NCBI GenBank assembly: GCA_040954595.2
Contig: JBECUI020000029.1
Location: forward strand, 124,001 to 188,000
Direction: 5' to 3'
Length of the DNA stretch: 64,000 nt
From: Balanoglossus misakiensis
Lineage: Eukaryota; Animalia; Hemichordata
Positions 394 through 64,000 of this stretch are shown here, one piece after another. Each line of letters starts with the position of its first letter. The stretch's first letter is position 1. Both the position numbers and the translations under genes were made by a program. The notes under the pieces were generated by a model. It did not search any database, was not told the DNA's origin, and saw only the letters and a list, made by a program, of their open reading frames with translations.

Positions 394-570
394 CTGTAAT
401 GGAAATGGAGAAAGTACCTTATATTTTCTGTAAAATAGACATTTAATTGGCAAGCCGTCCTGCATCAATTATTAATTGTGTACATGCACTAAAGCGCCCT
501 CACTGCTGGGTGTGTTGTATGGTCTTTAACCCTGTTTCAAATTAGAGTACTTTCTGCAATTTCAAGACAG
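394..570. mobile_element. 177-bp MITE-like insert present in every 452-bp monomer (representative copy)
   Basis: Left end ctgtaatggaaatggagaaagtac vs reverse complement of right end ctgtcttgaaattgcagaaagtac: 19/24 identical. Flanked by AT on both sides (tctagAT|...|ATcttacg). Absent from short monomers. Confidence 0.7.
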
Positions 571-1617: not shown

Positions 1618-4600
1618 TTGGTGGCAGTTGAGCTGAGGAGAGCACCTTCTTTCCCGGCACGCCACCAAGTAAAGTTCCACGCCGCCCACCACAGATGCCA
1701 GCATTCATTCATGCGAGTGAGTGTAATTGCAAATTTGCCTATTTACGTGCCATTGGAGAGCTCCATTGACTGGTCATTCATACTGTTTTCATTCATTCAT
1801 TGCGGCATCAATATATTTTATCTATTCTAGCCAAAGAGCTTGGCACCTGTTGAAATGAACTCATCTGCTGTGGGCCAGTTTATTGGTGGCAGTTGAGCTG
1901 AGGAGAGCACCTTCCTTCCCGGCACGCCACCAAGTAAAGTTCCACGCCGCCCACCACAGATGCCAGCATTCATTCATGCGAGTGAGTGTAATTGCAAATT
2001 TGCCTATTCTAGATCTGTAATGGAAATGGAGAAAGTACCTTATATTTTCTGTAAAATAGACATTTAATTGGCAAGCCGTCCTGCATCAATTATTAATTGT
2101 GTACATGCACTAAAGCGCCCTCACTGCTGGGTGTGTTGTATGGTCTTTAACCCTGTTTCAAATTAGAGTACTTTCTGCAATTTCAAGACAGATCTTACGT
2201 GCCATTGGAGAGCTCCATTGACTGGTCATTCATACTGTTTTCATTCATTCATTGCGGCATCAATATATTTTATCTATTCTAGCCAAAGAGCTTGGCACCT
2301 GTTGAAATGAACTCATCTGCTGTGGGCCAGTTTATTGGTGGCAGTTGAGCTGAGGAGAGCACCTTCCTTCCCGGCACGCCACCAAGTAAAGTTCCACGCC
2401 GCCCACCACAGATGCCAGCATTCATTCATGCGAGTGAGTGTAATTGCAAATTTGCCTATTCTAGAATTCTTACGTGCCATTGGAGAGCTCCATTGACTGG
2501 TCATTCATACTGTTTTCATTCATTCATTGCGGCATCAATATATTTTATCTATTCTAGCCAAAGAGCTTGGCACCTGTTGAAATGAACTCATCTGCTGTGG
2601 GCCAGTTTATTGGTGGCAGTTGAGCTGAGGAGAGCACCTTCCTTCCCGGCACGCCACCAAGTAAAGTTCCACGCCGCCCACCACAGATGCCAGCATTCAT
2701 TCATGCGAGTGAGTGTAATTGCAAATTTGCCTATTCTAGATCTGTAATGGAAATGGAGAAAGTACCTTATATTTTCTGTAAAATAGACATTTAATTGGCA
2801 AGCCGTCCTGCATCAATTATTAATTGTGTACATGCACTAAAGCGCCCTCACTGCTGGGTGTGTTGTATGGTCTTTAACCCTGTTTCAAATTAGAGTACTT
2901 TCTGCAATTTCAAGACAGATCTTACGTGCCATTGGAGAGCTCCATTGACTGGTCATTCATACTGTTTTCATTCATTCATTGCGGCATCAATATATTTTAT
3001 CTATTCTAGCCAAAGAGCTTGGCACCTGTTGAAATGAACTCATCTGCTGTGGGCCAGTTTATTGGTGGCAGTTGAGCTGAGGAGAGCACCTTCTTTCCCG
3101 GCACGCCACCAAGTAAAGTTCCACGCCGCCCACCACAGATGCCAGCATTCATTCATGCGAGTGAGTGTAATTGCAAATTTGCCTATTCTAGAATCTTACG
3201 TGCCATTGGAGAGCTCCATTGACTGGTCATTCATACTGTTTTCATTCATTCATTGCGGCATCAATATATTTTATCTATTCTAGCCAAAGAGCTTGGCACC
3301 TGTTGAAATGAACTCATCTGCTGTGGGCCAGTTTATTGGTGGCAGTTGAGCTGAGGAGAGCACCTTCTTTCCCGGCACGCCACCAAGTAAAGTTCCACGC
3401 CGCCCACCACAGATGCCAGCATTCATTCATGCGAGTGAGTGTAATTGCAAATTTGCCTATTTACGTGCCATTGGAGAGCTCCATTGACTGGTCATTCATA
3501 CTGTTTTCATTCATTCATTGCGGCATCAATATATTTTATCTATTCTAGCCAAAGAGCTTGGCACCTGTTGAAATGAACTCATCTGCTGTGGGCCAGTTTA
3601 TTGGTGGCAGTTGAGCTGAGGAGAGCACCTTCCTTCCCGGCACGCCACCAAGTAAAGTTCCACGCCGCCCACCACAGATGCCAGCATTCATTCATGCGAG
3701 TGAGTGTAATTGCAAATTTGCCTATTCTAGATCTGTAATGGAAATGGAGAAAGTACCTTATATTTTCTGTAAAATAGACATTTAATTGGCAAGCCGTCCT
3801 GCATCAATTATTAATTGTGTACATGCACTAAAGCGCCCTCACTGCTGGGTGTGTTGTATGGTCTTTAACCCTGTTTCAAATTAGAGTACTTTCTGCAATT
3901 TCAAGACAGATCTTACGTGCCATTGGAGAGCTCCATTGACTGGTCATTCATACTGTTTTCATTCATTCATTGCGGCATCAATATATTTTATCTATTCTAG
4001 CCAAAGAGCTTGGCACCTGTTGAAATGAACTCATCTGCTGTGGGCCAGTTTATTGGTGGCAGTTGAGCTGAGGAGAGCACCTTCTTTCCCGGCACGCCAC
4101 CAAGTAAAGTTCCACGCCGCCCACCACAGATGCCAGCATTCATTCATGCGAGTGAGTGTAATTGCAAATTTGCCTATTCTAGAATCTTACGTGCCATTGG
4201 AGAGCTCCATTGACTGGTCATTCATACTGTTTTCATTCATTCATTGCGGCATCAATATATTTTATCTATTCTAGCCAAAGAGCTTGGCACCTGTTGAAAT
4301 GAACTCATCTGCTGTGGGCCAGTTTATTGGTGGCAGTTGAGCTGAGGAGAGCACCTTCTTTCCCGGCACGCCACCAAGTAAAGTTCCACGCCGCCCACCA
4401 CAGATGCCAGCATTCATTCATGCGAGTGAGTGTAATTGCAAATTTGCCTATTCTAGAATCTTACGTGCCATTGGAGAGCTCCATTGACTGGTCATTCATA
4501 CTGTTTTCATTCATTCATTGCGGCATCAATATATTTTATCTATTCTAGCCAAAGAGCTTGGCACCTGTTGAAATGAACTCATCTGCTGTGGGCCAGTTTA

Positions 4601-7600
4601 TTGGTGGCAGTTGAGCTGAGGAGAGCACCTTCCTTCCCGGCACGCCACCAAGTAAAGTTCCACGCCGCCCACCACAGATGCCAGCATTCATTCATGCGAG
4701 TGAGTGTAATTGCAAATTTGCCTATTCTAGAATCTTACGTGCCATTGGAGAGCTCCATTGACTGGTCATTCATACTGTTTTCATTCATTCATTGCGGCAT
4801 CAATATATTTTATCTATTCTAGCCAAAGAGCTTGGCACCTGTTGAAATGAACTCATCTGCTGTGGGCCAGTTTATTGGTGGCAGTTGAGCTGAGGAGAGC
4901 ACCTTCCTTCCCGGCACGCCACCAAGTAAAGTTCCACGCCGCCCACCACAGATGCCAGCATTCATTCATGCGAGTGAGTGTAATTGCAAATTTGCCTATT
5001 CTAGAATCTTACGTGCCATTGGAGAGCTCCATTGACTGGTCATTCATACTGTTTTCATTCATTCATTGCGGCATCAATATATTTTATCTATTCTAGCCGA
5101 AGAGCTTGGCACCTGTTGAAATGAACTCATCTGCTGTGGGCCAGTTTATTGGTGGCAGTTGAGCTGAGGAGAGCACCTTCCTTCCCGGCACGCCACCAAG
5201 TAAAGTTCCACGCCGCCCACCACAGATGCCAGCATTCATTCATGCGAGTGAGTGTAATTGCAAATTTGCCTATTCTAGATCTGTAATGGAAATGGAGAAA
5301 GTACCTTATATTTTCTGTAAAATAGACATTTAATTGGCAAGCCGTCCTGCATCAATTATTAATTGTGTACATGCACTAAAGCGCCCTCACTGCTGGGTGT
5401 GTTGTATGGTCTTTAACCCTGTTTCAAATTAGAGTACTTTCTGCAATTTCAAGACAGATCTTACGTGCCATTGGAGAGCTCCATTGACTGGTCATTCATA
5501 CTGTTTTCATTCATTCATTGCGGCATCAATATATTTTATCTATTCTAGCCAAAGAGCTTGGCACCTGTTGAAATGAACTCATCTGCTGTGGGCCAGTTTA
5601 TTGGTGGCAGTTGAGCTGAGGAGAGCACCTTCCTTCCCGGCACGCCACCAAGTAAAGTTCCACGCCGCCCACCACAGATGCCAGCATTCATTCATGCGAG
5701 TGAGTGTAATTGCAAATTTGCCTATTCTAGATTCTTACGTGCCATTGGAGAGCTCCATTGACTGGTCATTCATACTGTTTTCATTCATTCATTGCGGCAT
5801 CAATATATTTTATCTATTCTAGCCAAAGAGCTTGGCACCTGTTGAAATGAACTCATCTGCTGTGGGCCAGTTTATTGGTGGCAGTTGAGCTGAGGAGAGC
5901 ACCTTCCTTCCCGGCACGCCACCAAGTAAAGTTCCACGCCGCCCACCACAGATGCCAGCATTCATTCATGCGAGTGAGTGTAATTGCAAATTTGCCTATT
6001 CTAGAATCTTACGTGCCATTGGAGAGCTCCATTGACTGGTCATTCATACTGTTTTCATTCATTCATTGCGGCATCAATATATTTTATCTATTCTAGCCAA
6101 AGAGCTTGGCACCTGTTGAAATGAACTCATCTGCTGTGGGCCAGTTTATTGGTGGCAGTTGAGCTGAGGAGAGCACCTTCCTTCCCGGCACGCCACCAAG
6201 TAAAGTTCCACGCCGCCCACCACAGATGCCAGCATTCATTCATGCGAGTGAGTGTAATTGCAAATTTGCCTATTCTAGATCTGTAATGGAAATGGAGAAA
6301 GTACCTTATATTTTCTGTAAAATAGACATTTAATTGGCAAGCCGTCCTGCATCAATTATTAATTGTGTACATGCACTAAAGCGCCCTCACTGCTGGGTGT
6401 GTTGTATGGTCTTTAACCCTGTTTCAAATTAGAGTACTTTCTGCAATTTCAAGACAGATCTTACGTGCCATTGGAGAGCTCCATTGACTGGTCATTCATA
6501 CTGTTTTCATTCATTCATTGCGGCATCAATATATTTTATCTATTCTAGCCAAAGAGCTTGGCACCTGTTGAAATGAACTCATCTGCTGTGGGCCAGTTTA
6601 TTGGTGGCAGTTGAGCTGAGGAGAGCACCTTCCTTCCCGGCACGCCACCAAGTAAAGTTCCACGCCGCCCACCACAGATGCCAGCATTCATTCATGCGAG
6701 TGAGTGTAATTGCAAATTTGCCTATTCTAGATCTGTAATGGAAATGGAGAAAGTACCTTATATTTTCTGTAAAATAGACATTTAATTGGCAAGCCGTCCT
6801 GCATCAATTATTAATTGTGTACATGCACTAAAGCGCCCTCACTGCTGGGTGTGTTGTATGGTCTTTAACCCTGTTTCAAATTAGAGTACTTTCTGCAATT
6901 TCAAGACAGATCTTACGTGCCATTGGAGAGCTCCATTGACTGGTCATTCATACTGTTTTCATTCATTCATTGCGGCATCAATATATTTTATCTATTCTAG
7001 CCAAAGAGCTTGGCACCTGTTGAAATGAACTCATCTGCTGTGGGCCAGTTTATTGGTGGCAGTTGAGCTGAGGAGAGCACCTTCCTTCCCGGCACGCCAC
7101 CAAGTAAAGTTCCACGCCGCCCACCACAGATGCCAGCATTCATTCATGCGAGTGAGTGTAATTGCAAATTTGCCTATTCTAGATCTGTAATGGAAATGGA
7201 GAAAGTACCTTATATTTTCTGTAAAATAGACATTTAATTGGCAAGCCGTCCTGCATCAATTATTAATTGTGTACATGCACTAAAGCGCCCTCACTGCTGG
7301 GTGTGTTGTATGGTCTTTAACCCTGTTTCAAATTAGAGTACTTTCTGCAATTTCAAGACAGATCTTACGTGCCATTGGAGAGCTCCATTGACTGGTCATT
7401 CATACTGTTTTCATTCATTCATTGCGGCATCAATATATTTTATCTATTCTAGCCAAAGAGCTTGGCACCTGTTGAAATGAACTCATCTGCTGTGGGCCAG
7501 TTTATTGGTGGCAGTTGAGCTGAGGAGAGCACCTTCCTTCCCGGCACGCCACCAAGTAAAGTTCCACGCCGCCCACCACAGATGCCAGCATTCATTCATG

Positions 7601-10600
7601 CGAGTGAGTGTAATTGCAAATTTGCCTATTCTAGATCTGTAATGGAAATGGAGAAAGTACCTTATATTTTCTGTAAAATAGACATTTAATTGGCAAGCCG
7701 TCCTGCATCAATTATTAATTGTGTACATGCACTAAAGCGCCCTCACTGCTGGGTGTGTTGTATGGTCTTTAACCCTGTTTCAAATTAGAGTACTTTCTGC
7801 AATTTCAAGACAGATCTTACGTGCCATTGGAGAGCTCCATTGACTGGTCATTCATACTGTTTTCATTCATTCATTGCGGCATCAATATATTTTATCTATT
7901 CTAGCCAAAGAGCTTGGCACCTGTTGAAATGAACTCATCTGCTGTGGGCCAGTTTATTGGTGGCAGTTGAGCTGAGGAGAGCACCTTCCTTCCCGGCACG
8001 CCACCAAGTAAAGTTCCACGCCGCCCACCACAGATGCCAGCATTCATTCATGCGAGTGAGTGTAATTGCAAATTTGCCTATTCTAGATCTGTAATGGAAA
8101 TGGAGAAAGTACCTTATATTTTCTGTAAAATAGACATTTAATTGGCAAGCCGTCCTGCATCAATTATTAATTGTGTACATGCACTAAAGCGCCCTCACTG
8201 CTGGGTGTGTTGTATGGTCTTTAACCCTGTTTCAAATTAGAGTACTTTCTGCAATTTCAAGACAGATCTTACGTGCCATTGGAGAGCTCCATTGACTGGT
8301 CATTCATACTGTTTTCATTCATTCATTGCGGCATCAATATATTTTATCTATTCTAGCCAAAGAGCTTGGCACCTGTTGAAATGAACTCATCTGCTGTGGG
8401 CCAGTTTATTGGTGGCAGTTGAGCTGAGGAGAGCACCTTCCTTCCCGGCACGCCACCAAGTAAAGTTCCACGCCGCCCACCACAGATGCCAGCATTCATT
8501 CATGCGAGTGAGTGTAATTGCAAATTTGCCTATTCTAGATCTGTAATGGAAATGGAGAAAGTACCTTATATTTTCTGTAAAATAGACATTTAATTGGCAA
8601 GCCGTCCTGCATCAATTATTAATTGTGTACATGCACTAAAGCGCCCTCACTGCTGGGTGTGTTGTATGGTCTTTAACCCTGTTTCAAATTAGAGTACTTT
8701 CTGCAATTTCAAGACAGATCTTACGTGCCATTGGAGAGCTCCATTGACTGGTCATTCATACTGTTTTCATTCATTCATTGCGGCATCAATATATTTTATC
8801 TATTCTAGCCAAAGAGCTTGGCACCTGTTGAAATGAACTCATCTGCTGTGGGCCAGTTTATTGGTGGCAGTTGAGCTGAGGAGAGCACCTTCTTTCCCGG
8901 CACGCCACCAAGTAAAGTTCCACGCCGCCCACCACAGATGCCAGCATTCATTCATGCGAGTGAGTGTAATTGCAAATTTGCCTATTTACGTGCCATTGGA
9001 GAGCTCCATTGACTGGTCATTCATACTGTTTTCATTCATTCATTGCGGCATCAATATATTTTATCTATTCTAGCCAAAGAGCTTGGCACCTGTTGAAATG
9101 AACTCATCTGCTGTGGGCCAGTTTATTGGTGGCAGTTGAGCTGAGGAGAGCACCTTCCTTCCCGGCACGCCACCAAGTAAAGTTCCACGCCGCCCACCAC
9201 AGATGCCAGCATTCATTCATGCGAGTGAGTGTAATTGCAAATTTGCCTATTCTAGATCTGTAATGGAAATGGAGAAAGTACCTTATATTTTCTGTAAAAT
9301 AGACATTTAATTGGCAAGCCGTCCTGCATCAATTATTAATTGTGTACATGCACTAAAGCGCCCTCACTGCTGGGTGTGTTGTATGGTCTTTAACCCTGTT
9401 TCAAATTAGAGTACTTTCTGCAATTTCAAGACAGATCTTACGTGCCATTGGAGAGCTCCATTGACTGGTCATTCATACTGTTTTCATTCATTCATTGCGG
9501 CATCAATATATTTTATCTATTCTAGCCAAAGAGCTTGGCACCTGTTGAAATGAACTCATCTGCTGTGGGCCAGTTTATTGGTGGCAGTTGAGCTGAGGAG
9601 AGCACCTTCCTTCCCGGCACGCCACCAAGTAAAGTTCCACGCCGCCCACCACAGATGCCAGCATTCATTCATGCGAGTGAGTGTAATTGCAAATTTGCCT
9701 ATTCTAGAATTCTTACGTGCCATTGGAGAGCTCCATTGACTGGTCATTCATACTGTTTTCATTCATTCATTGCGGCATCAATATATTTTATCTATTCTAG
9801 CCAAAGAGCTTGGCACCTGTTGAAATGAACTCATCTGCTGTGGGCCAGTTTATTGGTGGCAGTTGAGCTGAGGAGAGCACCTTCCTTCCCGGCACGCCAC
9901 CAAGTAAAGTTCCACGCCGCCCACCACAGATGCCAGCATTCATTCATGCGAGTGAGTGTAATTGCAAATTTGCCTATTCTAGATCTGTAATGGAAATGGA
10001 GAAAGTACCTTATATTTTCTGTAAAATAGACATTTAATTGGCAAGCCGTCCTGCATCAATTATTAATTGTGTACATGCACTAAAGCGCCCTCACTGCTGG
10101 GTGTGTTGTATGGTCTTTAACCCTGTTTCAAATTAGAGTACTTTCTGCAATTTCAAGACAGATCTTACGTGCCATTGGAGAGCTCCATTGACTGGTCATT
10201 CATACTGTTTTCATTCATTCATTGCGGCATCAATATATTTTATCTATTCTAGCCAAAGAGCTTGGCACCTGTTGAAATGAACTCATCTGCTGTGGGCCAG
10301 TTTATTGGTGGCAGTTGAGCTGAGGAGAGCACCTTCTTTCCCGGCACGCCACCAAGTAAAGTTCCACGCCGCCCACCACAGATGCCAGCATTCATTCATG
10401 CGAGTGAGTGTAATTGCAAATTTGCCTATTCTAGAATCTTACGTGCCATTGGAGAGCTCCATTGACTGGTCATTCATACTGTTTTCATTCATTCATTGCG
10501 GCATCAATATATTTTATCTATTCTAGCCAAAGAGCTTGGCACCTGTTGAAATGAACTCATCTGCTGTGGGCCAGTTTATTGGTGGCAGTTGAGCTGAGGA

Positions 10601-13600
10601 GAGCACCTTCTTTCCCGGCACGCCACCAAGTAAAGTTCCACGCCGCCCACCACAGATGCCAGCATTCATTCATGCGAGTGAGTGTAATTGCAAATTTGCC
10701 TATTTACGTGCCATTGGAGAGCTCCATTGACTGGTCATTCATACTGTTTTCATTCATTCATTGCGGCATCAATATATTTTATCTATTCTAGCCAAAGAGC
10801 TTGGCACCTGTTGAAATGAACTCATCTGCTGTGGGCCAGTTTATTGGTGGCAGTTGAGCTGAGGAGAGCACCTTCCTTCCCGGCACGCCACCAAGTAAAG
10901 TTCCACGCCGCCCACCACAGATGCCAGCATTCATTCATGCGAGTGAGTGTAATTGCAAATTTGCCTATTCTAGATCTGTAATGGAAATGGAGAAAGTACC
11001 TTATATTTTCTGTAAAATAGACATTTAATTGGCAAGCCGTCCTGCATCAATTATTAATTGTGTACATGCACTAAAGCGCCCTCACTGCTGGGTGTGTTGT
11101 ATGGTCTTTAACCCTGTTTCAAATTAGAGTACTTTCTGCAATTTCAAGACAGATCTTACGTGCCATTGGAGAGCTCCATTGACTGGTCATTCATACTGTT
11201 TTCATTCATTCATTGCGGCATCAATATATTTTATCTATTCTAGCCAAAGAGCTTGGCACCTGTTGAAATGAACTCATCTGCTGTGGGCCAGTTTATTGGT
11301 GGCAGTTGAGCTGAGGAGAGCACCTTCTTTCCCGGCACGCCACCAAGTAAAGTTCCACGCCGCCCACCACAGATGCCAGCATTCATTCATGCGAGTGAGT
11401 GTAATTGCAAATTTGCCTATTCTAGAATCTTACGTGCCATTGGAGAGCTCCATTGACTGGTCATTCATACTGTTTTCATTCATTCATTGCGGCATCAATA
11501 TATTTTATCTATTCTAGCCAAAGAGCTTGGCACCTGTTGAAATGAACTCATCTGCTGTGGGCCAGTTTATTGGTGGCAGTTGAGCTGAGGAGAGCACCTT
11601 CTTTCCCGGCACGCCACCAAGTAAAGTTCCACGCCGCCCACCACAGATGCCAGCATTCATTCATGCGAGTGAGTGTAATTGCAAATTTGCCTATTCTAGA
11701 ATCTTACGTGCCATTGGAGAGCTCCATTGACTGGTCATTCATACTGTTTTCATTCATTCATTGCGGCATCAATATATTTTATCTATTCTAGCCAAAGAGC
11801 TTGGCACCTGTTGAAATGAACTCATCTGCTGTGGGCCAGTTTATTGGTGGCAGTTGAGCTGAGGAGAGCACCTTCCTTCCCGGCACGCCACCAAGTAAAG
11901 TTCCACGCCGCCCACCACAGATGCCAGCATTCATTCATGCGAGTGAGTGTAATTGCAAATTTGCCTATTCTAGAATCTTACGTGCCATTGGAGAGCTCCA
12001 TTGACTGGTCATTCATACTGTTTTCATTCATTCATTGCGGCATCAATATATTTTATCTATTCTAGCCAAAGAGCTTGGCACCTGTTGAAATGAACTCATC
12101 TGCTGTGGGCCAGTTTATTGGTGGCAGTTGAGCTGAGGAGAGCACCTTCCTTCCCGGCACGCCACCAAGTAAAGTTCCACGCCGCCCACCACAGATGCCA
12201 GCATTCATTCATGCGAGTGAGTGTAATTGCAAATTTGCCTATTCTAGAATCTTACGTGCCATTGGAGAGCTCCATTGACTGGTCATTCATACTGTTTTCA
12301 TTCATTCATTGCGGCATCAATATATTTTATCTATTCTAGCCGAAGAGCTTGGCACCTGTTGAAATGAACTCATCTGCTGTGGGCCAGTTTATTGGTGGCA
12401 GTTGAGCTGAGGAGAGCACCTTCCTTCCCGGCACGCCACCAAGTAAAGTTCCACGCCGCCCACCACAGATGCCAGCATTCATTCATGCGAGTGAGTGTAA
12501 TTGCAAATTTGCCTATTCTAGATCTGTAATGGAAATGGAGAAAGTACCTTATATTTTCTGTAAAATAGACATTTAATTGGCAAGCCGTCCTGCATCAATT
12601 ATTAATTGTGTACATGCACTAAAGCGCCCTCACTGCTGGGTGTGTTGTATGGTCTTTAACCCTGTTTCAAATTAGAGTACTTTCTGCAATTTCAAGACAG
12701 ATCTTACGTGCCATTGGAGAGCTCCATTGACTGGTCATTCATACTGTTTTCATTCATTCATTGCGGCATCAATATATTTTATCTATTCTAGCCAAAGAGC
12801 TTGGCACCTGTTGAAATGAACTCATCTGCTGTGGGCCAGTTTATTGGTGGCAGTTGAGCTGAGGAGAGCACCTTCCTTCCCGGCACGCCACCAAGTAAAG
12901 TTCCACGCCGCCCACCACAGATGCCAGCATTCATTCATGCGAGTGAGTGTAATTGCAAATTTGCCTATTCTAGATTCTTACGTGCCATTGGAGAGCTCCA
13001 TTGACTGGTCATTCATACTGTTTTCATTCATTCATTGCGGCATCAATATATTTTATCTATTCTAGCCAAAGAGCTTGGCACCTGTTGAAATGAACTCATC
13101 TGCTGTGGGCCAGTTTATTGGTGGCAGTTGAGCTGAGGAGAGCACCTTCCTTCCCGGCACGCCACCAAGTAAAGTTCCACGCCGCCCACCACAGATGCCA
13201 GCATTCATTCATGCGAGTGAGTGTAATTGCAAATTTGCCTATTCTAGAATCTTACGTGCCATTGGAGAGCTCCATTGACTGGTCATTCATACTGTTTTCA
13301 TTCATTCATTGCGGCATCAATATATTTTATCTATTCTAGCCAAAGAGCTTGGCACCTGTTGAAATGAACTCATCTGCTGTGGGCCAGTTTATTGGTGGCA
13401 GTTGAGCTGAGGAGAGCACCTTCCTTCCCGGCACGCCACCAAGTAAAGTTCCACGCCGCCCACCACAGATGCCAGCATTCATTCATGCGAGTGAGTGTAA
13501 TTGCAAATTTGCCTATTCTAGATCTGTAATGGAAATGGAGAAAGTACCTTATATTTTCTGTAAAATAGACATTTAATTGGCAAGCCGTCCTGCATCAATT

Positions 13601-16103
13601 ATTAATTGTGTACATGCACTAAAGCGCCCTCACTGCTGGGTGTGTTGTATGGTCTTTAACCCTGTTTCAAATTAGAGTACTTTCTGCAATTTCAAGACAG
13701 ATCTTACGTGCCATTGGAGAGCTCCATTGACTGGTCATTCATACTGTTTTCATTCATTCATTGCGGCATCAATATATTTTATCTATTCTAGCCAAAGAGC
13801 TTGGCACCTGTTGAAATGAACTCATCTGCTGTGGGCCAGTTTATTGGTGGCAGTTGAGCTGAGGAGAGCACCTTCCTTCCCGGCACGCCACCAAGTAAAG
13901 TTCCACGCCGCCCACCACAGATGCCAGCATTCATTCATGCGAGTGAGTGTAATTGCAAATTTGCCTATTCTAGATCTGTAATGGAAATGGAGAAAGTACC
14001 TTATATTTTCTGTAAAATAGACATTTAATTGGCAAGCCGTCCTGCATCAATTATTAATTGTGTACATGCACTAAAGCGCCCTCACTGCTGGGTGTGTTGT
14101 ATGGTCTTTAACCCTGTTTCAAATTAGAGTACTTTCTGCAATTTCAAGACAGATCTTACGTGCCATTGGAGAGCTCCATTGACTGGTCATTCATACTGTT
14201 TTCATTCATTCATTGCGGCATCAATATATTTTATCTATTCTAGCCAAAGAGCTTGGCACCTGTTGAAATGAACTCATCTGCTGTGGGCCAGTTTATTGGT
14301 GGCAGTTGAGCTGAGGAGAGCACCTTCCTTCCCGGCACGCCACCAAGTAAAGTTCCACGCCGCCCACCACAGATGCCAGCATTCATTCATGCGAGTGAGT
14401 GTAATTGCAAATTTGCCTATTCTAGATCTGTAATGGAAATGGAGAAAGTACCTTATATTTTCTGTAAAATAGACATTTAATTGGCAAGCCGTCCTGCATC
14501 AATTATTAATTGTGTACATGCACTAAAGCGCCCTCACTGCTGGGTGTGTTGTATGGTCTTTAACCCTGTTTCAAATTAGAGTACTTTCTGCAATTTCAAG
14601 ACAGATCTTACGTGCCATTGGAGAGCTCCATTGACTGGTCATTCATACTGTTTTCATTCATTCATTGCGGCATCAATATATTTTATCTATTCTAGCCAAA
14701 GAGCTTGGCACCTGTTGAAATGAACTCATCTGCTGTGGGCCAGTTTATTGGTGGCAGTTGAGCTGAGGAGAGCACCTTCCTTCCCGGCACGCCACCAAGT
14801 AAAGTTCCACGCCGCCCACCACAGATGCCAGCATTCATTCATGCGAGTGAGTGTAATTGCAAATTTGCCTATTCTAGATCTGTAATGGAAATGGAGAAAG
14901 TACCTTATATTTTCTGTAAAATAGACATTTAATTGGCAAGCCGTCCTGCATCAATTATTAATTGTGTACATGCACTAAAGCGCCCTCACTGCTGGGTGTG
15001 TTGTATGGTCTTTAACCCTGTTTCAAATTAGAGTACTTTCTGCAATTTCAAGACAGATCTTACGTGCCATTGGAGAGCTCCATTGACTGGTCATTCATAC
15101 TGTTTTCATTCATTCATTGCGGCATCAATATATTTTATCTATTCTAGCCAAAGAGCTTGGCACCTGTTGAAATGAACTCATCTGCTGTGGGCCAGTTTAT
15201 TGGTGGCAGTTGAGCTGAGGAGAGCACCTTCCTTCCCGGCACGCCACCAAGTAAAGTTCCACGCCGCCCACCACAGATGCCAGCATTCATTCATGCGAGT
15301 GAGTGTAATTGCAAATTTGCCTATTCTAGATCTGTAATGGAAATGGAGAAAGTACCTTATATTTTCTGTAAAATAGACATTTAATTGGCAAGCCGTCCTG
15401 CATCAATTATTAATTGTGTACATGCACTAAAGCGCCCTCACTGCTGGGTGTGTTGTATGGTCTTTAACCCTGTTTCAAATTAGAGTACTTTCTGCAATTT
15501 CAAGACAGATCTTACGTGCCATTGGAGAGCTCCATTGACTGGTCATTCATACTGTTTTCATTCATTCATTGCGGCATCAATATATTTTATCTATTCTAGC
15601 CAAAGAGCTTGGCACCTGTTGAAATGAACTCATCTGCTGTGGGCCAGTTTATTGGTGGCAGTTGAGCTGAGGAGAGCACCTTCCTTCCCGGCACGCCACC
15701 AAGTAAAGTTCCACGCCGCCCACCACAGATGCCAGCATTCATTCATGCGAGTGAGTGTAATTGCAAATTTGCCTATTCTAGATCTGTAATGGAAATGGAG
15801 AAAGTACCTTATATTTTCTGTAAAATAGACATTTAATTGGCAAGCCGTCCTGCATCAATTATTAATTGTGTACATGCACTAAAGCGCCCTCACTGCTGGG
15901 TGTGTTGTATGGTCTTTAACCCTGTTTCAAATTAGAGTACTTTCTGCAATTTCAAGACAGATCTTACGTGCCATTGGAGAGCTCCATTGACTGGTCATTC
16001 ATACTGTTTTCATTCATTCATTGCGGCATCAATATATTTTATCTATTCTAGCCAAAGAGCTTGGCACCTGTTGAAATGAACTCATCTGCTGTGGGCCAGT
16101 TTA
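1618..16103. repeat. Two copies of a 7243-bp higher-order repeat (20 monomers)
   Basis: Variant monomers recur at 1618, 8861, 16104. Order: 265,452,275,452,274,265,452,274,274,274,274,452,274,274, then 6x452, summing to 7243. The same period holds at 33730 to 40973. Confidence 0.97.
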
Positions 16104-16870
16104 TTGGTGGCAGTTGAGCTGAGGAGAGCACCTTCTTTCCCGGCACGCCACCAAGTAAAGTTCCACGCCGCCCACCACAGATGCCAGCATTCATTCATGC
16201 GAGTGAGTGTAATTGCAAATTTGCCTATTTACGTGCCATTGGAGAGCTCCATTGACTGGTCATTCATACTGTTTTCATTCATTCATTGCGGCATCAATAT
16301 ATTTTATCTATTCTAGCCAAAGAGCTTGGCACCTGTTGAAATGAACTCATCTGCTGTGGGCCAGTTTATTGGTGGCAGTTGAGCTGAGGAGAGCACCTTC
16401 CTTCCCGGCACGCCACCAAGTAAAGTTCCACGCCGCCCACCACAGATGCCAGCATTCATTCATGCGAGTGAGTGTAATTGCAAATTTGCCTATTCTAGAT
16501 CTGTAATGGAAATGGAGAAAGTACCTTATATTTTCTGTAAAATAGACATTTAATTGGCAAGCCGTCCTGCATCAATTATTAATTGTGTACATGCACTAAA
16601 GCGCCCTCACTGCTGGGTGTGTTGTATGGTCTTTAACCCTGTTTCAAATTAGAGTACTTTCTGCAATTTCAAGACAGATCTTACGTGCCATTGGAGAGCT
16701 CCATTGACTGGTCATTCATACTGTTTTCATTCATTCATTGCGGCATCAATATATTTTATCTATTCTAGCCAAAGAGCTTGGCACCTGTTGAAATGAACTC
16801 ATCTGCTGTGGGCCAGTTTATTGGTGGCAGTTGAGCTGAGGAGAGCACCTTCCTTCCCGGCACGCCACCA

Positions 16871-18677
16871 AGTAAAGTTCCACGTGCATTCCTGGCCCTG
16901 GTTTTATTTATGTTTACAGACAATATTGCATTTTTGTACAAGTATTTTAATCAACTATAAATTTTGAATGTGTCATTTACCTGAACCGGTCATGTTGACC
17001 AGAATGATACATTTCTGCCTTCACTCACCCTATAAATATGTGATTGAGACATAGGTCATTTGCATAAGCTAACATACCAGAAAGTAAGCATATCTGTTGT
17101 TTTCCCTGTGTCACTGCCATCAAAGTAAAAATTAGACGTTGTGTAGAGCAAACTCCAATTTTTTGTTCTCAATAAACATGGATGAATTACATAGAATGTG
17201 TTTGTTGTTTACAGTCTTTAAATGACACATTAGATTATGCACTTTACAAAACGTTTCTGAGAAACAAGTGACTAACTAGTTTCTTTCCACTGTGGCCAAC
17301 GTGGTTCACTGTTTGTGTCAGAATCTCTCTGTTTTGCAAGGATTTTGAAATCATAGTGGTGACATGCATAGTGAAAATCAGCTACTTTCAAATGTCCGTC
17401 ATGTTCATGCTGTAATTGAATTTTCAAAGCTGGGCTGGCGTGTTTTTTCTTATTTACATAAGTATCACACTTTATACATGTATCTTCATGGGGTTTTTTG
17501 AGTCCCGTATTTAGGTCCTCTCTCACAATTTTACGAAATATCGTATAACTGACAGTTGTTCTTCCCAGAAGAGATTGGTTGGTTATGAACTCTCGGTGTA
17601 ACTGCGATATACTGTGGGCCGGCGCCAGGTACGGTTTAAATCGAGGATTCCTGCAGTAGTGAGATTCTACAATTCTGTGCCTGCGTACGTGTTCAGTGAT
17701 ATCAGTCAGCAAATTTGGATTGAGTTTCCGACGATGCCCTTTGTGTCGGCCCCTTGCATCTGGCATCAGACCAGTAAAGTTCCATGTGCATTCCTGGCCC
17801 TGGTTTTATTTATGTTTACAGACAATATTGCATTTTTGTACAAGTATTTTAATCAACTATAAATTTTGAATGTGTCATTTACCTGAACCGGTCATGTTGA
17901 CCAGAATGATACATTTCTGCCTTCACTCACCCTATAAATATGTGATTGAGACATAGGTCATTTGCATAAGCTAACATACCAGAAAGTAAGCATATCTGAT
18001 GTTTTCCCTGTGTCACTGCCATCAAAGTAAAAATTAGACGTTGTGTAGAGCAAACTCCAATTTTTTGTTCTCAATAAACATGGATGAATTACATAGAATG
18101 TGTTTGTTGTTTACAGTCTTTAAATGACACATTAGATTATGCACTTTACAAAACGTTTCTGAGAAACAAGTGACTAACTAGTTTCTTTCCACTGTGGCCA
18201 ACGTGGTTCACTGTTTGTGTCAGAATCTCTCTGTTTTGCAAGGATTTTGAAATCATAGTGGTGACATGCATAGTGAAAATCAGCTACTTTCAAATGTCCG
18301 TCATGTTCATGCTGTAATTGAATTTTCAAAGCTGGGCTGGCGTGTTTTTTCTTATTTACATAAGTATCACACTTTATACATGTATCTTCATGGGGTTTTC
18401 TGAGTCCCGTATTTAGGTCCTCTCTCACAATTTTACGAAATATCGTATAACTGACAGTTGTTCTTCCCAGAAGAGATTGGTTGGTTATGAACTCTCGGTG
18501 TAACTGCGATATACTGTGGTCCGGTGCCAGGTACGGTTTAAATCGAGGATTCCTGCAGTAGTGAGATTCTACAATTCTGTGCCTGCGTACGTGTTCAGTG
18601 ATATCAGTCAGCAAATTTGGATTGAGTTTCCGACGATGCCCTTTGTGTCGGCCCCTTGCATCTGGCATCAGACCAGT
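16871..18677. repeat. 902-bp tandem duplication inside the cassette
   Basis: 16871-17775 matches 17773-18677 with a few substitutions. Junction has agt microhomology (gaccagt|aaagttcc vs gaccagt|tgaacag). Confidence 0.95.
17272..17775 (-). pseudogene. 5'-truncated duplicate of the transposase N-half gene (164-aa ORF from an internal Met)
   Basis: Matches the last 164 aa of the 18174-19136 ORF except two residues (D>A, R>K); created by the 902-bp duplication. Confidence 0.75.
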
Positions 18678-19130
18678 TGAACAGTGCATCATTTTGCTTA
18701 GAACGGTTCTAGTCCGCCTCTCACTAATGCCAAATAATTTCAGGAATGCATTTTTGCAGACAGTAACCGTTTCACCGCCTTCATTCACCAGGTGATAACG
18801 AACCGATTTCTTGTGTGACTTCATCTGCATATCCATCAGTTTGTAGAGCATCAAGTTCTGTTCATTATACACGCGACCATCAAAATATTTTCTCGTGGTG
18901 CCTAAAACATGCGTACTCCCAAGCTTCCGCATACAATTCCCTTGAACGCAGGCGCATTCCAAGGAAAGACTGTCAATATCTGGAAAAGGGCGATTTTTCC
19001 TTGGTTTTTGTCTCGGACACGTCTTTTTAGAATTCCTACGTGGCTTGTTGGCTCGAGCTGACAGTTCGGTTCTGCGTTGCTGCCACACAGGAATGGGTTC
19101 CCACGCATAAGCAACTCCCCGGCAGGCCAT
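18174..19130 (-). CDS. Sola1-like transposase, N-terminal half (putative DNA-binding/Zn region)
   Basis: Open ORF with first ATG at 19130. Motifs VCKNAFLKLFGIS, DARGRH, ESHYCR..YL, VSYTIFRKIV...KPHEDTCxxCD...HxxH resemble the N-terminal half of Sola1-type transposases. No catalytic motifs. Confidence 0.8.
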   Translation of the reverse strand: MACRGVAYAWEPIPVWQQRRTELSARANKPRRNSKKTCPRQKPRKNRPFPDIDSLSLECACVQGNCMRKLGSTHVLGTTRKYFDGRVYNEQNLMLYKLMDMQMKSHKKSVRYHLVNEGGETVTVCKNAFLKLFGISERRTRTVLSKMMHCSTGLMPDARGRHKGHRRKLNPNLLTDITEHVRRHRIVESHYCRNPRFKPYLAPDHSISQLHREFITNQSLLGRTTVSYTIFRKIVREDLNTGLRKPHEDTCIKCDTYVNKKKHASPALKIQLQHEHDGHLKVADFHYACHHYDFKILAKQRDSDTNSEPRWPQWKETS

Positions 19131-19177
19131 GGTCACAGCTGAAGTATTTGTTCAAGTACTGACTGACTAAACGCGGC

Positions 19178-20311
19178 ATGGAACAAACGAACGAACGACT
19201 TCACGTTCGGAAAAAAAATCGTTGCGAGCTGTTGGGTGCATGCCTCTATAGTTGTCGGCAACCGTTCTTTTTTATTGCTAAACAATGCTGTCAGAGCATG
19301 GAAGGTGTGGTGGAAAACGAACAGAGGTTTTGTACGACCAACGATTGGATGGTGCTACATATGGACTTCCACAAGTCATTGCCGGTTCCTAAACTCAGCT
19401 CTGAAGACTTTTACTTTAAATCGAAATTGCAAATGAAGCTCCTTGGAATTTACAACGGGACAACGGAAAAGATGCATTGTTATGTATGGACAGAGCTCGA
19501 TAGCAGAAAGTCTCCCGATGAAGTTATTACCTGTCTAAATCACTTTTTTTATAACTCGGGTGTGACCAGCAGACATGCAGTTATTTACAGCGACAACTGC
19601 CGTGCCGAATTCAAGTGTGGGAAGTTAATGTTTTACTATGACTATCTGTTACGAAAGGGCGTGTTTCGACGAATTGACTATAAAACTCTTGTGGCTGGAC
19701 ACACGTACTCCACCTGTGACCGAGTTTTTGCGTCCATTGAAAGGCATGCAAGTCGTTTCCAGAGTATAGAGACACCTCACGATTGGACATCTGTGATTCG
19801 AGGATCTTCTCTGAATGGGAACATTGGAGTTACGGAGATGACTCACAGAGACTTTTTCAATTATTCTGATTTCCTGAAAAATGAGTACGTTGTGCGTTAT
19901 GCAGATACAAACAATGTAACTTTTTACTACCAAGCCATGCACTATTTTAATTTTGGAGAAGGAGAAAGGCTTGATACCGACGGCAACCTCAGAACATTTA
20001 GTCATGCAGATAAAGTTTGGGTGAGAACATCTCTAGATCCAAGCGAGACCCCGATTGTAGTCGACTTTAGAAAGAAGAAGCAGAACCGGCGTTTACAAGA
20101 TTGTACGCTGAACAAACTTTATCAGGAACGTCGACCACTGGCGAGCAAAGTTTGGCGGGATCTTCAGAGTTTAGCCAAAAATTACCTGTCTCCGGAGGCA
20201 ATAGAATTTTATAGGAATCTACCGCTTCAGGAGAGTAGTGGCACCTCTGCAGACCCGTACGCCTTTCATGATGATGACGACGACGATGATGATGATATGG
20301 GCGGTGGTTGA
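19178..20311 (+). CDS. Sola1-like transposase, catalytic DDD half
   Basis: 377-aa ORF (alternative start ATG 19298, agcATGG). Motifs DFHKSLPVP..FYFKSKL, CYVWTE..EVITCL, SDNC, GHTYSTCDRVFASIE; acidic tail. AATAAA overlaps the stop (20311-20316). Confidence 0.88.
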   Translation: MEQTNERLHVRKKNRCELLGACLYSCRQPFFFIAKQCCQSMEGVVENEQRFCTTNDWMVLHMDFHKSLPVPKLSSEDFYFKSKLQMKLLGIYNGTTEKMHCYVWTELDSRKSPDEVITCLNHFFYNSGVTSRHAVIYSDNCRAEFKCGKLMFYYDYLLRKGVFRRIDYKTLVAGHTYSTCDRVFASIERHASRFQSIETPHDWTSVIRGSSLNGNIGVTEMTHRDFFNYSDFLKNEYVVRYADTNNVTFYYQAMHYFNFGEGERLDTDGNLRTFSHADKVWVRTSLDPSETPIVVDFRKKKQNRRLQDCTLNKLYQERRPLASKVWRDLQSLAKNYLSPEAIEFYRNLPLQESSGTSADPYAFHDDDDDDDDDMGGG

Positions 20312-23051: not shown

Positions 23052-23417
23052 ATGGCGGCCAAGCTCAACTGCATATCAGATAATGCCAAGGAGCGTTTGA
23101 GAGGCATCCTCGCCAGAAGGAGTCGCGTTTCCGGTGACTGTGTGCTCTGGACGGGTGCAGCTTGTCGAAACGGCTATGGCTCTATTACGTTCAGAGATGA
23201 GAACACTCTAACCGCCTATGTCCATCACATTGCACTCCTAATTAACGGAGTGCAATTGGTGGGCAGGCGGTTAGAGTGTTCTCATCTTTGCAACGAAAAG
23301 CTATGCATCCGCCCAGAGCACATTGTCCAGGAAACGCGACTCCTAAACATTTCACGAAAGACGTGCTTTAAATCCCCAAAAGGGGAGTGTCACCACGATC
23401 CCAGGTGCCTAAGGTGA
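23052..23417 (+). CDS. His-Cys box / His-Me finger endonuclease (I-PpoI-like), ~121 aa
   Basis: CVLWTG..NGYG..YVHH..ECSHLCNEKLCIRPEHIVQE...NISRKTC..CHHDPRC matches the zinc-binding His-Cys box pattern. ATG 23052; CCAAT upstream near 22933. A gtgagt overlaps the stop, so a small terminal intron is possible. Confidence 0.85.
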   Translation: MAAKLNCISDNAKERLRGILARRSRVSGDCVLWTGAACRNGYGSITFRDENTLTAYVHHIALLINGVQLVGRRLECSHLCNEKLCIRPEHIVQETRLLNISRKTCFKSPKGECHHDPRCLR

Positions 23418-24395: not shown

Positions 24396-24730
24396 TGTCA
24401 ACACAGATGCCAGCATTCAAAAGGGGAGTGCCACCTGCTAAAATCAACTCATCTGCTGTTGGCCCATTTTACCTGTGGCAACTGTTCAGAGGAGACAACG
24501 TTTATTCCGTGCAAGCCAACACGCAATGTTGGGGTCTACCTGTCAACACAGATGCAAGCATTCATGTGAGTGAGTATCAGGACTGACCTTGTATTTGCTG
24601 AATAATTCATAATGCCTATTTTAGAATTCTTAGAGGCATTTGGAGTTCATTGCCTGGTCAACCAAACTACACCCCTTAACAGCTGAAACAAAATGCGTAT
24701 TGTGTTCATTCATTCATTGCATCAATATAT
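24396..24730. repeat. Diverged relic of the satellite monomer inside the cassette
   Basis: Colinear matches: acagatgccagcattca, cacctgctaaaatcaactcatctgctgttggcc, gtgagtgagt, tgcctattttagaattctta, ttcattcattcattgcatcaatatat. Confidence 0.85.
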
Positions 24731-25037
24731 ATAGGCAACATGAGTATCAAGTAGCACTATTTGTTTACGATTGTATTCATGAAAACTTCCCACTAACAAT
24801 TCCACAGTTAATATTGAACACATTTATCCAACAAGGTCAAAAGAAAAAGGGAATCTTCTGGTTCCAAAATACGCCACAAATGTGGGTCAACATACAGTGA
24901 AATATTATGGTGCTCAAATATGCAACATATCAAATCTGTCTCATCAAAGTCATGCTTTAAAAAAGAATTGAAAAGGTATTATTTATCCATTTGACTGCTG
25001 TATTTTCAGAAGGAAAACAAACTGAATTTGGTTTTTC

Positions 25038-28000
25038 AAGTACCTTATATTTTCTGTAAAATAGACATTTAATTGGCAAGCCGTCCTGCATCAATTATTA
25101 ATTGTGTACATGCACTAAAGCGCCCTCACTGCTGGGTGTGTTGTATGGTCTTTAACCCTGTTTCAAATTAGAGTACTTTCTGCAATTTCAAGACAGATCT
25201 TACGTGCCATTGGAGAGCTCCATTGACTGGTCATTCATACTGTTTTCATTCATTCATTGCGGCATCAATATATTTTATCTATTCTAGCCAAAGAGCTTGG
25301 CACCTGTTGAAATGAACTCATCTGCTGTGGGCCAGTTTATTGGTGGCAGTTGAGCTGAGGAGAGCACCTTCCTTCCCGGCACGCCACCAAGTAAAGTTCC
25401 ACGCCGCCCACCACAGATGCCAGCATTCATTCATGCGAGTGAGTGTAATTGCAAATTTGCCTATTCTAGATCTGTAATGGAAATGGAGAAAGTACCTTAT
25501 ATTTTCTGTAAAATAGACATTTAATTGGCAAGCCGTCCTGCATCAATTATTAATTGTGTACATGCACTAAAGCGCCCTCACTGCTGGGTGTGTTGTATGG
25601 TCTTTAACCCTGTTTCAAATTAGAGTACTTTCTGCAATTTCAAGACAGATCTTACGTGCCATTGGAGAGCTCCATTGACTGGTCATTCATACTGTTTTCA
25701 TTCATTCATTGCGGCATCAATATATTTTATCTATTCTAGCCAAAGAGCTTGGCACCTGTTGAAATGAACTCATCTGCTGTGGGCCAGTTTATTGGTGGCA
25801 GTTGAGCTGAGGAGAGCACCTTCCTTCCCGGCACGCCACCAAGTAAAGTTCCACGCCGCCCACCACAGATGCCAGCATTCATTCATGCGAGTGAGTGTAA
25901 TTGCAAATTTGCCTATTCTAGATCTGTAATGGAAATGGAGAAAGTACCTTATATTTTCTGTAAAATAGACATTTAATTGGCAAGCCGTCCTGCATCAATT
26001 ATTAATTGTGTACATGCACTAAAGCGCCCTCACTGCTGGGTGTGTTGTATGGTCTTTAACCCTGTTTCAAATTAGAGTACTTTCTGCAATTTCAAGACAG
26101 ATCTTACGTGCCATTGGAGAGCTCCATTGACTGGTCATTCATACTGTTTTCATTCATTCATTGCGGCATCAATATATTTTATCTATTCTAGCCAAAGAGC
26201 TTGGCACCTGTTGAAATGAACTCATCTGCTGTGGGCCAGTTTATTGGTGGCAGTTGAGCTGAGGAGAGCACCTTCCTTCCCGGCACGCCACCAAGTAAAG
26301 TTCCACGCCGCCCACCACAGATGCCAGCATTCATTCATGCGAGTGAGTGTAATTGCAAATTTGCCTATTCTAGATCTGTAATGGAAATGGAGAAAGTACC
26401 TTATATTTTCTGTAAAATAGACATTTAATTGGCAAGCCGTCCTGCATCAATTATTAATTGTGTACATGCACTAAAGCGCCCTCACTGCTGGGTGTGTTGT
26501 ATGGTCTTTAACCCTGTTTCAAATTAGAGTACTTTCTGCAATTTCAAGACAGATCTTACGTGCCATTGGAGAGCTCCATTGACTGGTCATTCATACTGTT
26601 TTCATTCATTCATTGCGGCATCAATATATTTTATCTATTCTAGCCAAAGAGCTTGGCACCTGTTGAAATGAACTCATCTGCTGTGGGCCAGTTTATTGGT
26701 GGCAGTTGAGCTGAGGAGAGCACCTTCCTTCCCGGCACGCCACCAAGTAAAGTTCCACGCCGCCCACCACAGATGCCAGCATTCATTCATGCGAGTGAGT
26801 GTAATTGCAAATTTGCCTATTCTAGATCTGTAATGGAAATGGAGAAAGTACCTTATATTTTCTGTAAAATAGACATTTAATTGGCAAGCCGTCCTGCATC
26901 AATTATTAATTGTGTACATGCACTAAAGCGCCCTCACTGCTGGGTGTGTTGTATGGTCTTTAACCCTGTTTCAAATTAGAGTACTTTCTGCAATTTCAAG
27001 ACAGATCTTACGTGCCATTGGAGAGCTCCATTGACTGGTCATTCATACTGTTTTCATTCATTCATTGCGGCATCAATATATTTTATCTATTCTAGCCAAA
27101 GAGCTTGGCACCTGTTGAAATGAACTCATCTGCTGTGGGCCAGTTTATTGGTGGCAGTTGAGCTGAGGAGAGCACCTTCTTTCCCGGCACGCCACCAAGT
27201 AAAGTTCCACGCCGCCCACCACAGATGCCAGCATTCATTCATGCGAGTGAGTGTAATTGCAAATTTGCCTATTTACGTGCCATTGGAGAGCTCCATTGAC
27301 TGGTCATTCATACTGTTTTCATTCATTCATTGCGGCATCAATATATTTTATCTATTCTAGCCAAAGAGCTTGGCACCTGTTGAAATGAACTCATCTGCTG
27401 TGGGCCAGTTTATTGGTGGCAGTTGAGCTGAGGAGAGCACCTTCCTTCCCGGCACGCCACCAAGTAAAGTTCCACGCCGCCCACCACAGATGCCAGCATT
27501 CATTCATGCGAGTGAGTGTAATTGCAAATTTGCCTATTCTAGATCTGTAATGGAAATGGAGAAAGTACCTTATATTTTCTGTAAAATAGACATTTAATTG
27601 GCAAGCCGTCCTGCATCAATTATTAATTGTGTACATGCACTAAAGCGCCCTCACTGCTGGGTGTGTTGTATGGTCTTTAACCCTGTTTCAAATTAGAGTA
27701 CTTTCTGCAATTTCAAGACAGATCTTACGTGCCATTGGAGAGCTCCATTGACTGGTCATTCATACTGTTTTCATTCATTCATTGCGGCATCAATATATTT
27801 TATCTATTCTAGCCAAAGAGCTTGGCACCTGTTGAAATGAACTCATCTGCTGTGGGCCAGTTTATTGGTGGCAGTTGAGCTGAGGAGAGCACCTTCCTTC
27901 CCGGCACGCCACCAAGTAAAGTTCCACGCCGCCCACCACAGATGCCAGCATTCATTCATGCGAGTGAGTGTAATTGCAAATTTGCCTATTCTAGAATTCT

Positions 28001-63000: not shown

Positions 63001-64000
63001 TAATTGCAAATTTGCCTATTCTAGATCTGTAATGGAAATGGAGAAAGTACCTTATATTTTCTGTAAAATAGACATTTAATTGGCAAGCCGTCCTGCATCA
63101 ATTATGAATTGTGTACATGCACTAAAGCGCCCTCACTGCTGGGTGTGTTGTATGGTCTTTAACCCTGTTTCAAATTAGAGTACTTTCTGCAATTTCAAGA
63201 CAGATCTTACGTGCCATTGGAGAGCTCCATTGACTGGTCATTCATACTGTTTTCATTCATTCATTGCGGCATCAATATATTTTATCTATTCTAGCCAAAG
63301 AGCTTGGCACCTGTTGAAATGAACTCATCTGCTGTGGGCCAGTTTATTGGTGGCAGTTGAGCTGAGAAGAGCACCTTCCTTCCCGGCACGCCACCAAGTA
63401 AAGTTCCACGCCGCCCACCACAGATGCCAGCATTCATTCATGCGAGTGAGTGTAATTGCAAATTTGCCTATTCTAGATCTGTAATGGAAATGGAGAAAGT
63501 ACCTTATATTTTCTGTAAAATAGACATTTAATTGGCAAGCCGTCCTGCATCAATTATGAATTGTGTACATGCACTAAAGCGCCCTCACTGCTGGGTGTGT
63601 TGTATGGTCTTTAACCCTGTTTCAAATTAGAGTACTTTCTGCAATTTCAAGACAGATCTTACGTGCCATTGGAGAGCTCCATTGACTGGTCATTCATACT
63701 GTTTTCATTCATTCATTGCGGCATCAATATATTTTATCTATTCTAGCCAAAGAGCTTGGCACCTGTTGAAATGAACTCATCTGCTGTGGGCCAGTTTATT
63801 GGTGGCAGTTGAGCTGAGGAGAGCACCTTCCTTCCCGGCACGCCACCAAGTAAAGTTCCACGCCGCCCACCACAGATGCCAGCATTCATTCATGCGAGTG
63901 AGTGTAATTGCAAATTTGCCTATTCTAGATCTGTAATGGAAATGGAGAAAGTACCTTATATTTTCTGTAAAATAGACATTTAATTGGCAAGCCGTCCTGC
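57073..64000. repeat. Satellite array 3
   Basis: Mostly 452-bp monomers, with two 274-bp monomers at about 58731 and 59005; runs off the window end. Confidence 0.99.

Follow-up and report, generated by a model that had tools for sequence, protein, structure and literature searches.

Candidate excision scars of a MITE distinguish the monomer classes of a hemichordate satellite array

Results

Organisation of the satellite array

The window that we analysed, a 64,000-nucleotide stretch of Balanoglossus misakiensis DNA, is a satellite array that is interrupted twice by an 8-kb cassette. Every monomer consists of a 258-bp body and a junction, and all length variation is confined to the junction, where a 177-bp MITE is either present or missing. 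The body contains 54 homopolymer runs, yet no indel was found in any of the 124 bodies compared. The same number of left anchors occurs in the window, 123 of them with a complete junction and the last running off the window end. The 177-bp unit is present in 70 of the 123 junctions (filled, 452-bp monomers); the remainder fall into four empty classes, as follows.

126-383, + strand: monomer body, 258 bp; 6 distinct substitutions and 0 indels in 124 bodies
1650, + strand: body SNP C169T; the T allele precedes 11/11 deletion, 16/32 AAT, 0/5 AATT, 0/5 ATT and 1/71 filled junctions
1740-8982, + strand: higher-order repeat, 7,243 bp, 20 monomers (10 filled, 6 AAT, 2 deletion, 1 AATT, 1 ATT)
1740-1746, + strand: 10-bp-deletion junction, 265-bp monomer, 11/123; probably secondary, from an AAT monomer
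2457-2473, + strand: AATT junction, 275-bp monomer, 5/123
3184-3199, + strand: first AAT junction, 274-bp monomer, 32/123
5723-5738, + strand: ATT junction, 274-bp monomer, 5/123

The original prediction had reported the junction coordinates, junction classes and monomer lengths (452, 274, 265, 275 and 274 bp), and our retabulation over the 123 junctions returned the same values. Because the 123 junctions are copies of the 20-monomer higher-order repeat, whose first two copies are identical (1740-8982 and 8983-16225), the counts are copies of a few events and are not independent. A sub-array of filled monomers at 46029-48095 and 61855-63662, duplicated approximately 16 kb apart, is marked by a substitution in the MITE (8 of 70 copies) and by two alleles at body position 157. 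An unrelated 424-bp element is found once, inside a monomer body at 48363-48786, with TA on each side, CAG...CTG ends and perfect inverted repeats of 189 bp. We take it, by a rule of thumb for the family, to be a very young Tc1/mariner-type MITE, and its presence in a monomer body means that the array still receives insertions.

The 177-bp unit behaves as a MITE

The original prediction held the 177-bp unit to be a MITE, and this is borne out by its terminal inverted repeats, its dispersed copies and its flanking AT. Papers are cited by PMC number throughout. At 177 bp the unit lies within the length of under 500 bp by which MITEs are recognised (PMC8449440), and its inverted termini are those expected of such an element.

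394-570, strand not assigned: MITE, first complete copy, 177 bp, starting CTGT and ending ACAG
394-417, + strand: left terminal inverted repeat, 24 bp, matching the right end at 19 of 24 positions
547-570, - strand: right terminal inverted repeat, 24 bp, pairing with the left end
392-393, + strand: left AT, putative 2-bp target duplication, with the right AT at 571-572

The match between the termini is ungapped; in 200,000 shuffles the count never reached 18, and 15 was the highest value among 7,964 cassette windows. The 177-bp strand folds back with its ends paired and with AGATCT lengthening the stem (z = -2.9; 1 of 200 shuffles was as good). Among the 70 complete copies within complete junctions there are no indels and a single substitution variant. 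AGATCT forms a 6-bp direct repeat that spans both ends of the element, and the flanking AGAT/ATCT extends the symmetry, so the satellite alone would allow target duplications of 0, 2, 4 or 6 bp. All 71 left and 73 right MITE ends in the window read G-AT and AT-C.

No dispersed copy was found within the window, and an exact search for the left terminal repeat in metagenome contigs gave 0 matches. We draw on read contigs, in which the stretch was found in four runs (X1 to X4) that represent two samples at the most. X1 and X2 share a sample, contain the cassette junction and the relic described below, and may be the window's own source. The original prediction had called for a search for dispersed copies, and diverged copies with other flanks are present in X1 and X2; this evidence comes from that one sample, in contigs with short consensus flanks whose left and right sides are unpaired. 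The copies carry 11 substitutions over 81 bases, 5 substitutions and 5 gap letters over 81, and 6 substitutions and 14 gap letters over 124, and MITE positions 19-177 with the flanking AT stand in a 1,907-bp contig, where 25 substitutions and 10 gap letters were counted. The left end is preceded by (AT)n in at least three X1 contigs and at least two X2 contigs (two from X2 with an agreement of 1.0), and right ends run into (AT)n-rich letters in at least two X2 contigs. Among the rows listed, AT adjoins the MITE on both sides wherever a terminus and its flank are both displayed. Probable ligation chimeras were excluded, given that GATC is inserted at GATC sites in X1, namely loose ends before 391 and 570, joints from 394 to 570 and from 573 to 391, and insertions at 390 and 569, together with the equivalent rows at 25195-25196. 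One X1 contig matches the MITE up to position 437 and continues with 67 unlike letters; this is possibly a longer relative with the same left end and a lead to an autonomous element.

The dispersed copies keep the terminal C and G, and boundaries with 4- or 6-bp duplications were rejected on this ground. What is left is a 2-bp AT duplication or no duplication at all (a 179-bp element with T...A ends), and the two fit equally; duplication length is undefined in (AT)n sites, and no paralogous empty site was seen in the read contigs. Taken together, the observations support a 177-bp unit that behaves as a MITE.

Comparison with known transposon families

The original prediction pointed to hAT or CACTA transposases, and membership of either family fails on the length of the duplication or on the termini. 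hAT elements duplicate 5-8 bp and CACTA/EnSpm (CMC) elements 2-4 bp (PMC4482050). For hAT, a 6-bp AGATCT boundary would leave CTG/CAG outside the element, yet the dispersed copies keep CTG/CAG beside (AT)n. The putative AT duplication would fit CACTA/EnSpm in length, and this family was rejected on its termini, which are CAC...GTG (PMC12730594) and not the CTG...CAG seen here. ISL2EU elements, of the PHIS superfamily, duplicate AT, as the MITE putatively does, within an A|AT|T target, and their terminal repeats usually start with GG (PMC4482050). Their AATT target is the sequence of the relic. The MITE instead has G-AT...AT-C in place of A-AT...AT-T, dispersed sites in (AT)n and termini that begin with CT, and ISL2EU was rejected. 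Ginger2 elements end TGT...ACA, and a GATC boundary would fit the satellite, but the dispersed copies keep the C and G, with unlike 4-mers there, and Ginger2 was rejected as well. It duplicates 4 bp, as does Sola1, whose duplication is AWWT (PMC3845634); Sola1 would fit the (AT)n sites alone and was rejected because the satellite site repeats only AT outside the element. CryptonV elements target microsatellites (PMC8869645) and Cryptons are associated with short direct repeats (PMC3212892). The microsatellite targeting would fit the MITE, whereas scars of several lengths would fit a recombinase poorly; the partner expected of a CryptonV element is a tyrosine recombinase.

Dispersed copies lying between (AT)n runs recall other microsatellite-flanked elements, namely the pineapple Ac-mMITE (PMC8449440), MuTAnT and CryptonV (PMC8869645), and plant Mutator-like MITEs are known to target microsatellites (PMC8449440). 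Unlike in those MITEs, no 9- or 10-bp duplication is seen here, the terminal repeat is only 24 bp and the satellite site is not a microsatellite. Elements with terminal inverted repeats have also been described in tandem arrays, as here: Xstir and miDNA4 in Xenopus (PMC12628747) and the mariner element Mboumar in Messor satellite DNA (PMC2581405). There, either the MITE contains the repeat or a single insertion of the element breaks the array, whereas here a whole MITE lies inside each long monomer. What is peculiar to this satellite is that the presence of the MITE, or of a scar, defines the class of the monomer.

The cassette appears to be a bystander

The cassette was considered as a source of the mobilising enzyme, and the features concerned are listed together with the diverged monomer relic.

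19163-20311, + strand: cassette ORF with DUF7869 (domain match), the proposed mobiliser, a role that is unsupported
24410-24730, + strand: diverged, MITE-free monomer relic; 156 of 216 aligned columns identical (72%), 5 gap events
25038-25196, + strand: truncated MITE copy, first 18 bp absent, fused to the cassette across a microhomology of 6 bases

From their motifs, we take the ORF at 19163-20311 to be Sola-like and the minus-strand ORF at 18174-19151 to encode the N-terminal half of the same transposase. The two ORFs are arranged head-to-head and are followed by SET and His-Me finger genes. The three aspartates of the DUF7869 ORF are kept in 3 of 3 homologues. Three homologues of the C-terminal half stand alone (306-313 aa), one of them from Saccoglossus, and the split halves may represent a natural lineage. 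A weak search at 1e-10 returned no longer homologue, and the transposase (P0002) has no solved relative; its Atlas neighbours are DUF7869 proteins or unnamed.

The original prediction had proposed testing this transposase for excision of the MITE, and we found nothing that ties the two together. The best match to the MITE-type terminal repeat in the cassette is 16 of 24, which is at chance level, and the truncated MITE copy is joined to the cassette by microhomology; because of these two observations the transposase is probably a bystander.

Three further features of the cassette were observed. The coding region of the His-Me finger protein at 23118-23344 aligns to itself in inverted orientation over 254 columns (71%, E 2e-26), a long and imperfect fold-back, and yet keeps its frame open. 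The left end of the cassette carries a 905-bp tandem duplication (99.4%; 16871-17775 and 17773-18677) that copies the 3' part of the minus-strand ORF and has a 12-base word in common with the satellite body. One X2 cassette contig continues with other letters after the 6-base microhomology at 25043 and does not run into the MITE, and a second form of the right end of the cassette may exist.

Junction classes and the missing precise site

The precise empty site, a 273-bp monomer that the original prediction had likewise not seen, occurs in 0 of the 123 junctions and 0 of the 53 empty ones, with both strands of the window searched. It is also absent among the listed joints of the read contigs, where GATC cutting could deplete it in X1 and X2, making its absence there weak evidence and the window count the firmer one. 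X1 contigs contain all four empty classes of the window and a fifth that the window lacks, seen in one contig, with a joint from 392 to 574 and a single A between. In X2, the empty junctions listed are AAT and a one-base variant of AAT, and the contigs of X3 and X4 (one sample, three contigs each) contain filled and AAT junctions only.

The body sequences give some indication of how the classes are related. Because the T allele of C169T is common to the 10-bp-deletion and AAT monomers, and was found with only 1 of 71 filled junctions, we read the deletion as secondary; most simply, it is probably a 9-bp deletion in an AAT monomer. The AATT and ATT junctions sit on a filled-type body background, the AATT bodies being identical to filled ones, which is compatible with separate excisions. 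At the junction itself, AAT differs from ATT by one substitution and from AATT by one duplicated base, and one deletion in AATT is enough to give any of the other classes, including the precise site. The original prediction counted at least four independent excisions. This number goes beyond the evidence, given the link of the deletion to AAT through C169T, the single substitution between AAT and ATT and the match of AATT to the relic, and we put the count at two or three.

Evidence for excision scars

We consider excision scars of the MITE to be the best reading of the short monomers and, on balance, a probable one. Three observations speak for it: the indels are concentrated at the MITE site, the product expected of slippage does not occur, and a hairpin model yields three of the classes. 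There are no indels in the 124 bodies and 70 MITE copies, against four classes at the junction. With a uniform rate assumed and one founding event granted, 3 further events in the 17-bp junction, a window chosen after seeing the data, have a p of 0.005 given 7 background events in 435 bp. If the model hairpin is nicked 1 nt into the flank and nothing is trimmed, AATT is reached by 6 routes, AAT and ATT by 4 each and the precise site by 1, whereas an untrimmed blunt-hairpin model yields none of AATT, AAT and ATT. Plain trimming cannot reach AATT, and under trimming with random insertion AATT is 1 of 40 possible 17-nt products. The 10-bp deletion and the fifth X1 class lie outside the untrimmed hairpin model; both need trimming, and the latter also a base that trimming cannot give.

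Flank hairpins and complemented bases are the chemistry of Ac/Ds excision (PMC5873905), and the hairpin pathway is common to hAT, Transib, the MULE Muta1 and RAG (PMC5499845). The marks of a flank hairpin, a complemented innermost flank base and short deletions, are found in AATT, AAT and ATT. The putative satellite scars are like those of Ac/Ds (PMC5873905): deletions are short, and the palindromic bases have at their centre the complement of the base that adjoined the element. They differ in being fixed as monomer classes of a higher-order repeat, and the MITE site differs in its 2-bp flank repeat, against 5-8 bp (PMC4482050), and in its CTGT ends. The mobilising transposase was probably of the flank-hairpin type.

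The relic and alternative explanations

The footprint reading of the original prediction is thus favoured as far as the clustering of indels, the absent slippage product and the three hairpin-type classes are concerned; its filled-to-empty direction is called into question by the relic. The prediction had cautioned that the relic carries AATT, and we read AGAATTCT at 24613-24632. This stretch is the best 20-column window of the alignment (19/20), but other windows reach 18/20, which falls short of showing gene conversion of the relic junction. The bodies are too uniform to root the filled against the empty form. The X1 and X2 contigs contain other monomer-like families (region 24418-24730): in some, position 24730 is linked to 24418 or 24432 through 27-34 other letters, and in others 74 bases are skipped. 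These families are outgroups suited to rooting the junction. A 27-letter relic-like piece with a joint from 24561 to 25038, at the same depth as the 1,907-bp MITE contig, hints at an old link between MITE and monomer, and was not counted since it falls below our 30-letter bar.

AATT may instead be the ancestral, never-filled site, and this we hold to be unlikely though deserving of attention. The element would have entered a monomer whose central 2 bp had already gone or were lost as it inserted (in the latter case a 179-bp element with T...A ends that takes the place of AT), and AAT, ATT and the deletions would be scars or deletions from AATT. A relic that is 28% diverged and reads AATT speaks for this, as does the derivation of each class from AATT by one deletion. 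The dispersed copies also agree with the satellite copy at 83-95% of aligned letters, against 72% between relic and body, which suggests insertion after the relic split. Such a history requires that 2 bp were first deleted and that the element then landed on precisely this AT, one of 24 in the monomer, or else that the insertion deleted its target, and we know of no DNA transposon that does so. In addition, the bodies of the AATT monomers equal the filled ones and are not older, and if AAT, ATT and the other classes arose by plain slippage the hotspot (p ~0.005) is left unexplained. With MITE relatives that are 14-17% diverged, the family would be old enough for an old scar in the relic to be thinkable. 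Quite improbable, in our view, is a single excision that gave AAT, after which ordinary mutation of AAT monomers produced ATT by one substitution, AATT by duplication of one T, and also the deletions. Each class is indeed one edit from AAT, which is the commonest empty class (32/53) and the sole one listed in X3 and X4, and the deletion class is tied to it through C169T. But the 17-bp junction would then have gained 3 mutations while 435 bp of background gained 7 (p 0.005); two of the three would be indels, a type missing from the background (Fisher p 0.067), and the X1 class adds a fourth mutation.

Two further explanations do without excision by a transposase. A site-specific nuclease, such as the His-Me finger protein of the cassette, might cut the palindrome AGAATTCT, so that the short classes would be end-joining scars that destroy the target, one of which the MITE later used. 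In its favour, a His-Me finger domain is encoded in the cassette (PF05551, E 6.7e-13), enzymes related to it cleave semi-palindromic sites (PMC9587614), every class can be derived from AATT by deletion, and only 5 of 123 junctions keep AATT intact. The target of this protein is purely putative, however, a MITE landing exactly on a scar would be a coincidence, and both element ends are complete at the filled site and flanked by AT, like those of the dispersed copies; we regard this explanation as very improbable. Equally hard to credit is loss of a fold-back element that is skipped during replication. The strand folds with paired ends and AGATCT extends the stem (z -2.9), but slippage between the 6-bp AGATCT repeats predicts the precise site, found in 0 of 53 empties, and gives neither AATT nor the X1 class.

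Discussion

If the short monomers are excision scars, the array may have formed as follows. The starting point would be a 452-bp monomer made up of the 258-bp body and the 177-bp element with its inverted ends and AT on both sides, the element having presumably inserted into AGATCT and duplicated AT. A transposase acting in trans would have nicked one base into each flank and closed the flanks as hairpins, and host opening and end joining would then have swapped or lost the innermost bases to give AATT, AAT and ATT. Unequal exchange could have fixed the scar monomers at set places of the 20-monomer repeat, and the 10-bp deletion would have arisen later, likely from an AAT monomer. The AATT of the relic would then be either an earlier scar of this type or coincidental, as more routes lead to AATT than to any other product.

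Hairpin footprints are familiar, and so are satellites with MITEs; what is new here is their combination only. Among the papers that our literature search listed, judged by title or start of abstract and outside most subscription journals, none describes monomer classes that owe their identity to a transposon and to the scars it leaves, and the words excision, footprint and higher-order are absent from the main text of PMC12628747 on MITE satellites.

We tentatively suggest, as a possibility and not as the expected outcome, that an unclassified hairpin-forming family with CTGT ends, an AT duplication and (AT)n targets has repeatedly cut the MITE from the array, and may still do so. The scars would then be the letters of the higher-order repeat, the array would be a donor reservoir, and breaks made by the transposase would help to drive its turnover. 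Monomer types of higher-order repeats are usually attributed to drifting point mutation. In this array they differ almost only by a transposon or its scar, so that higher-order structure would arise directly from cut-and-paste excision. With its many identical donor sites, a large array would also serve as a natural footprint assay, in which rare scars in long reads would report on the chemistry of the enzyme and on its current activity.
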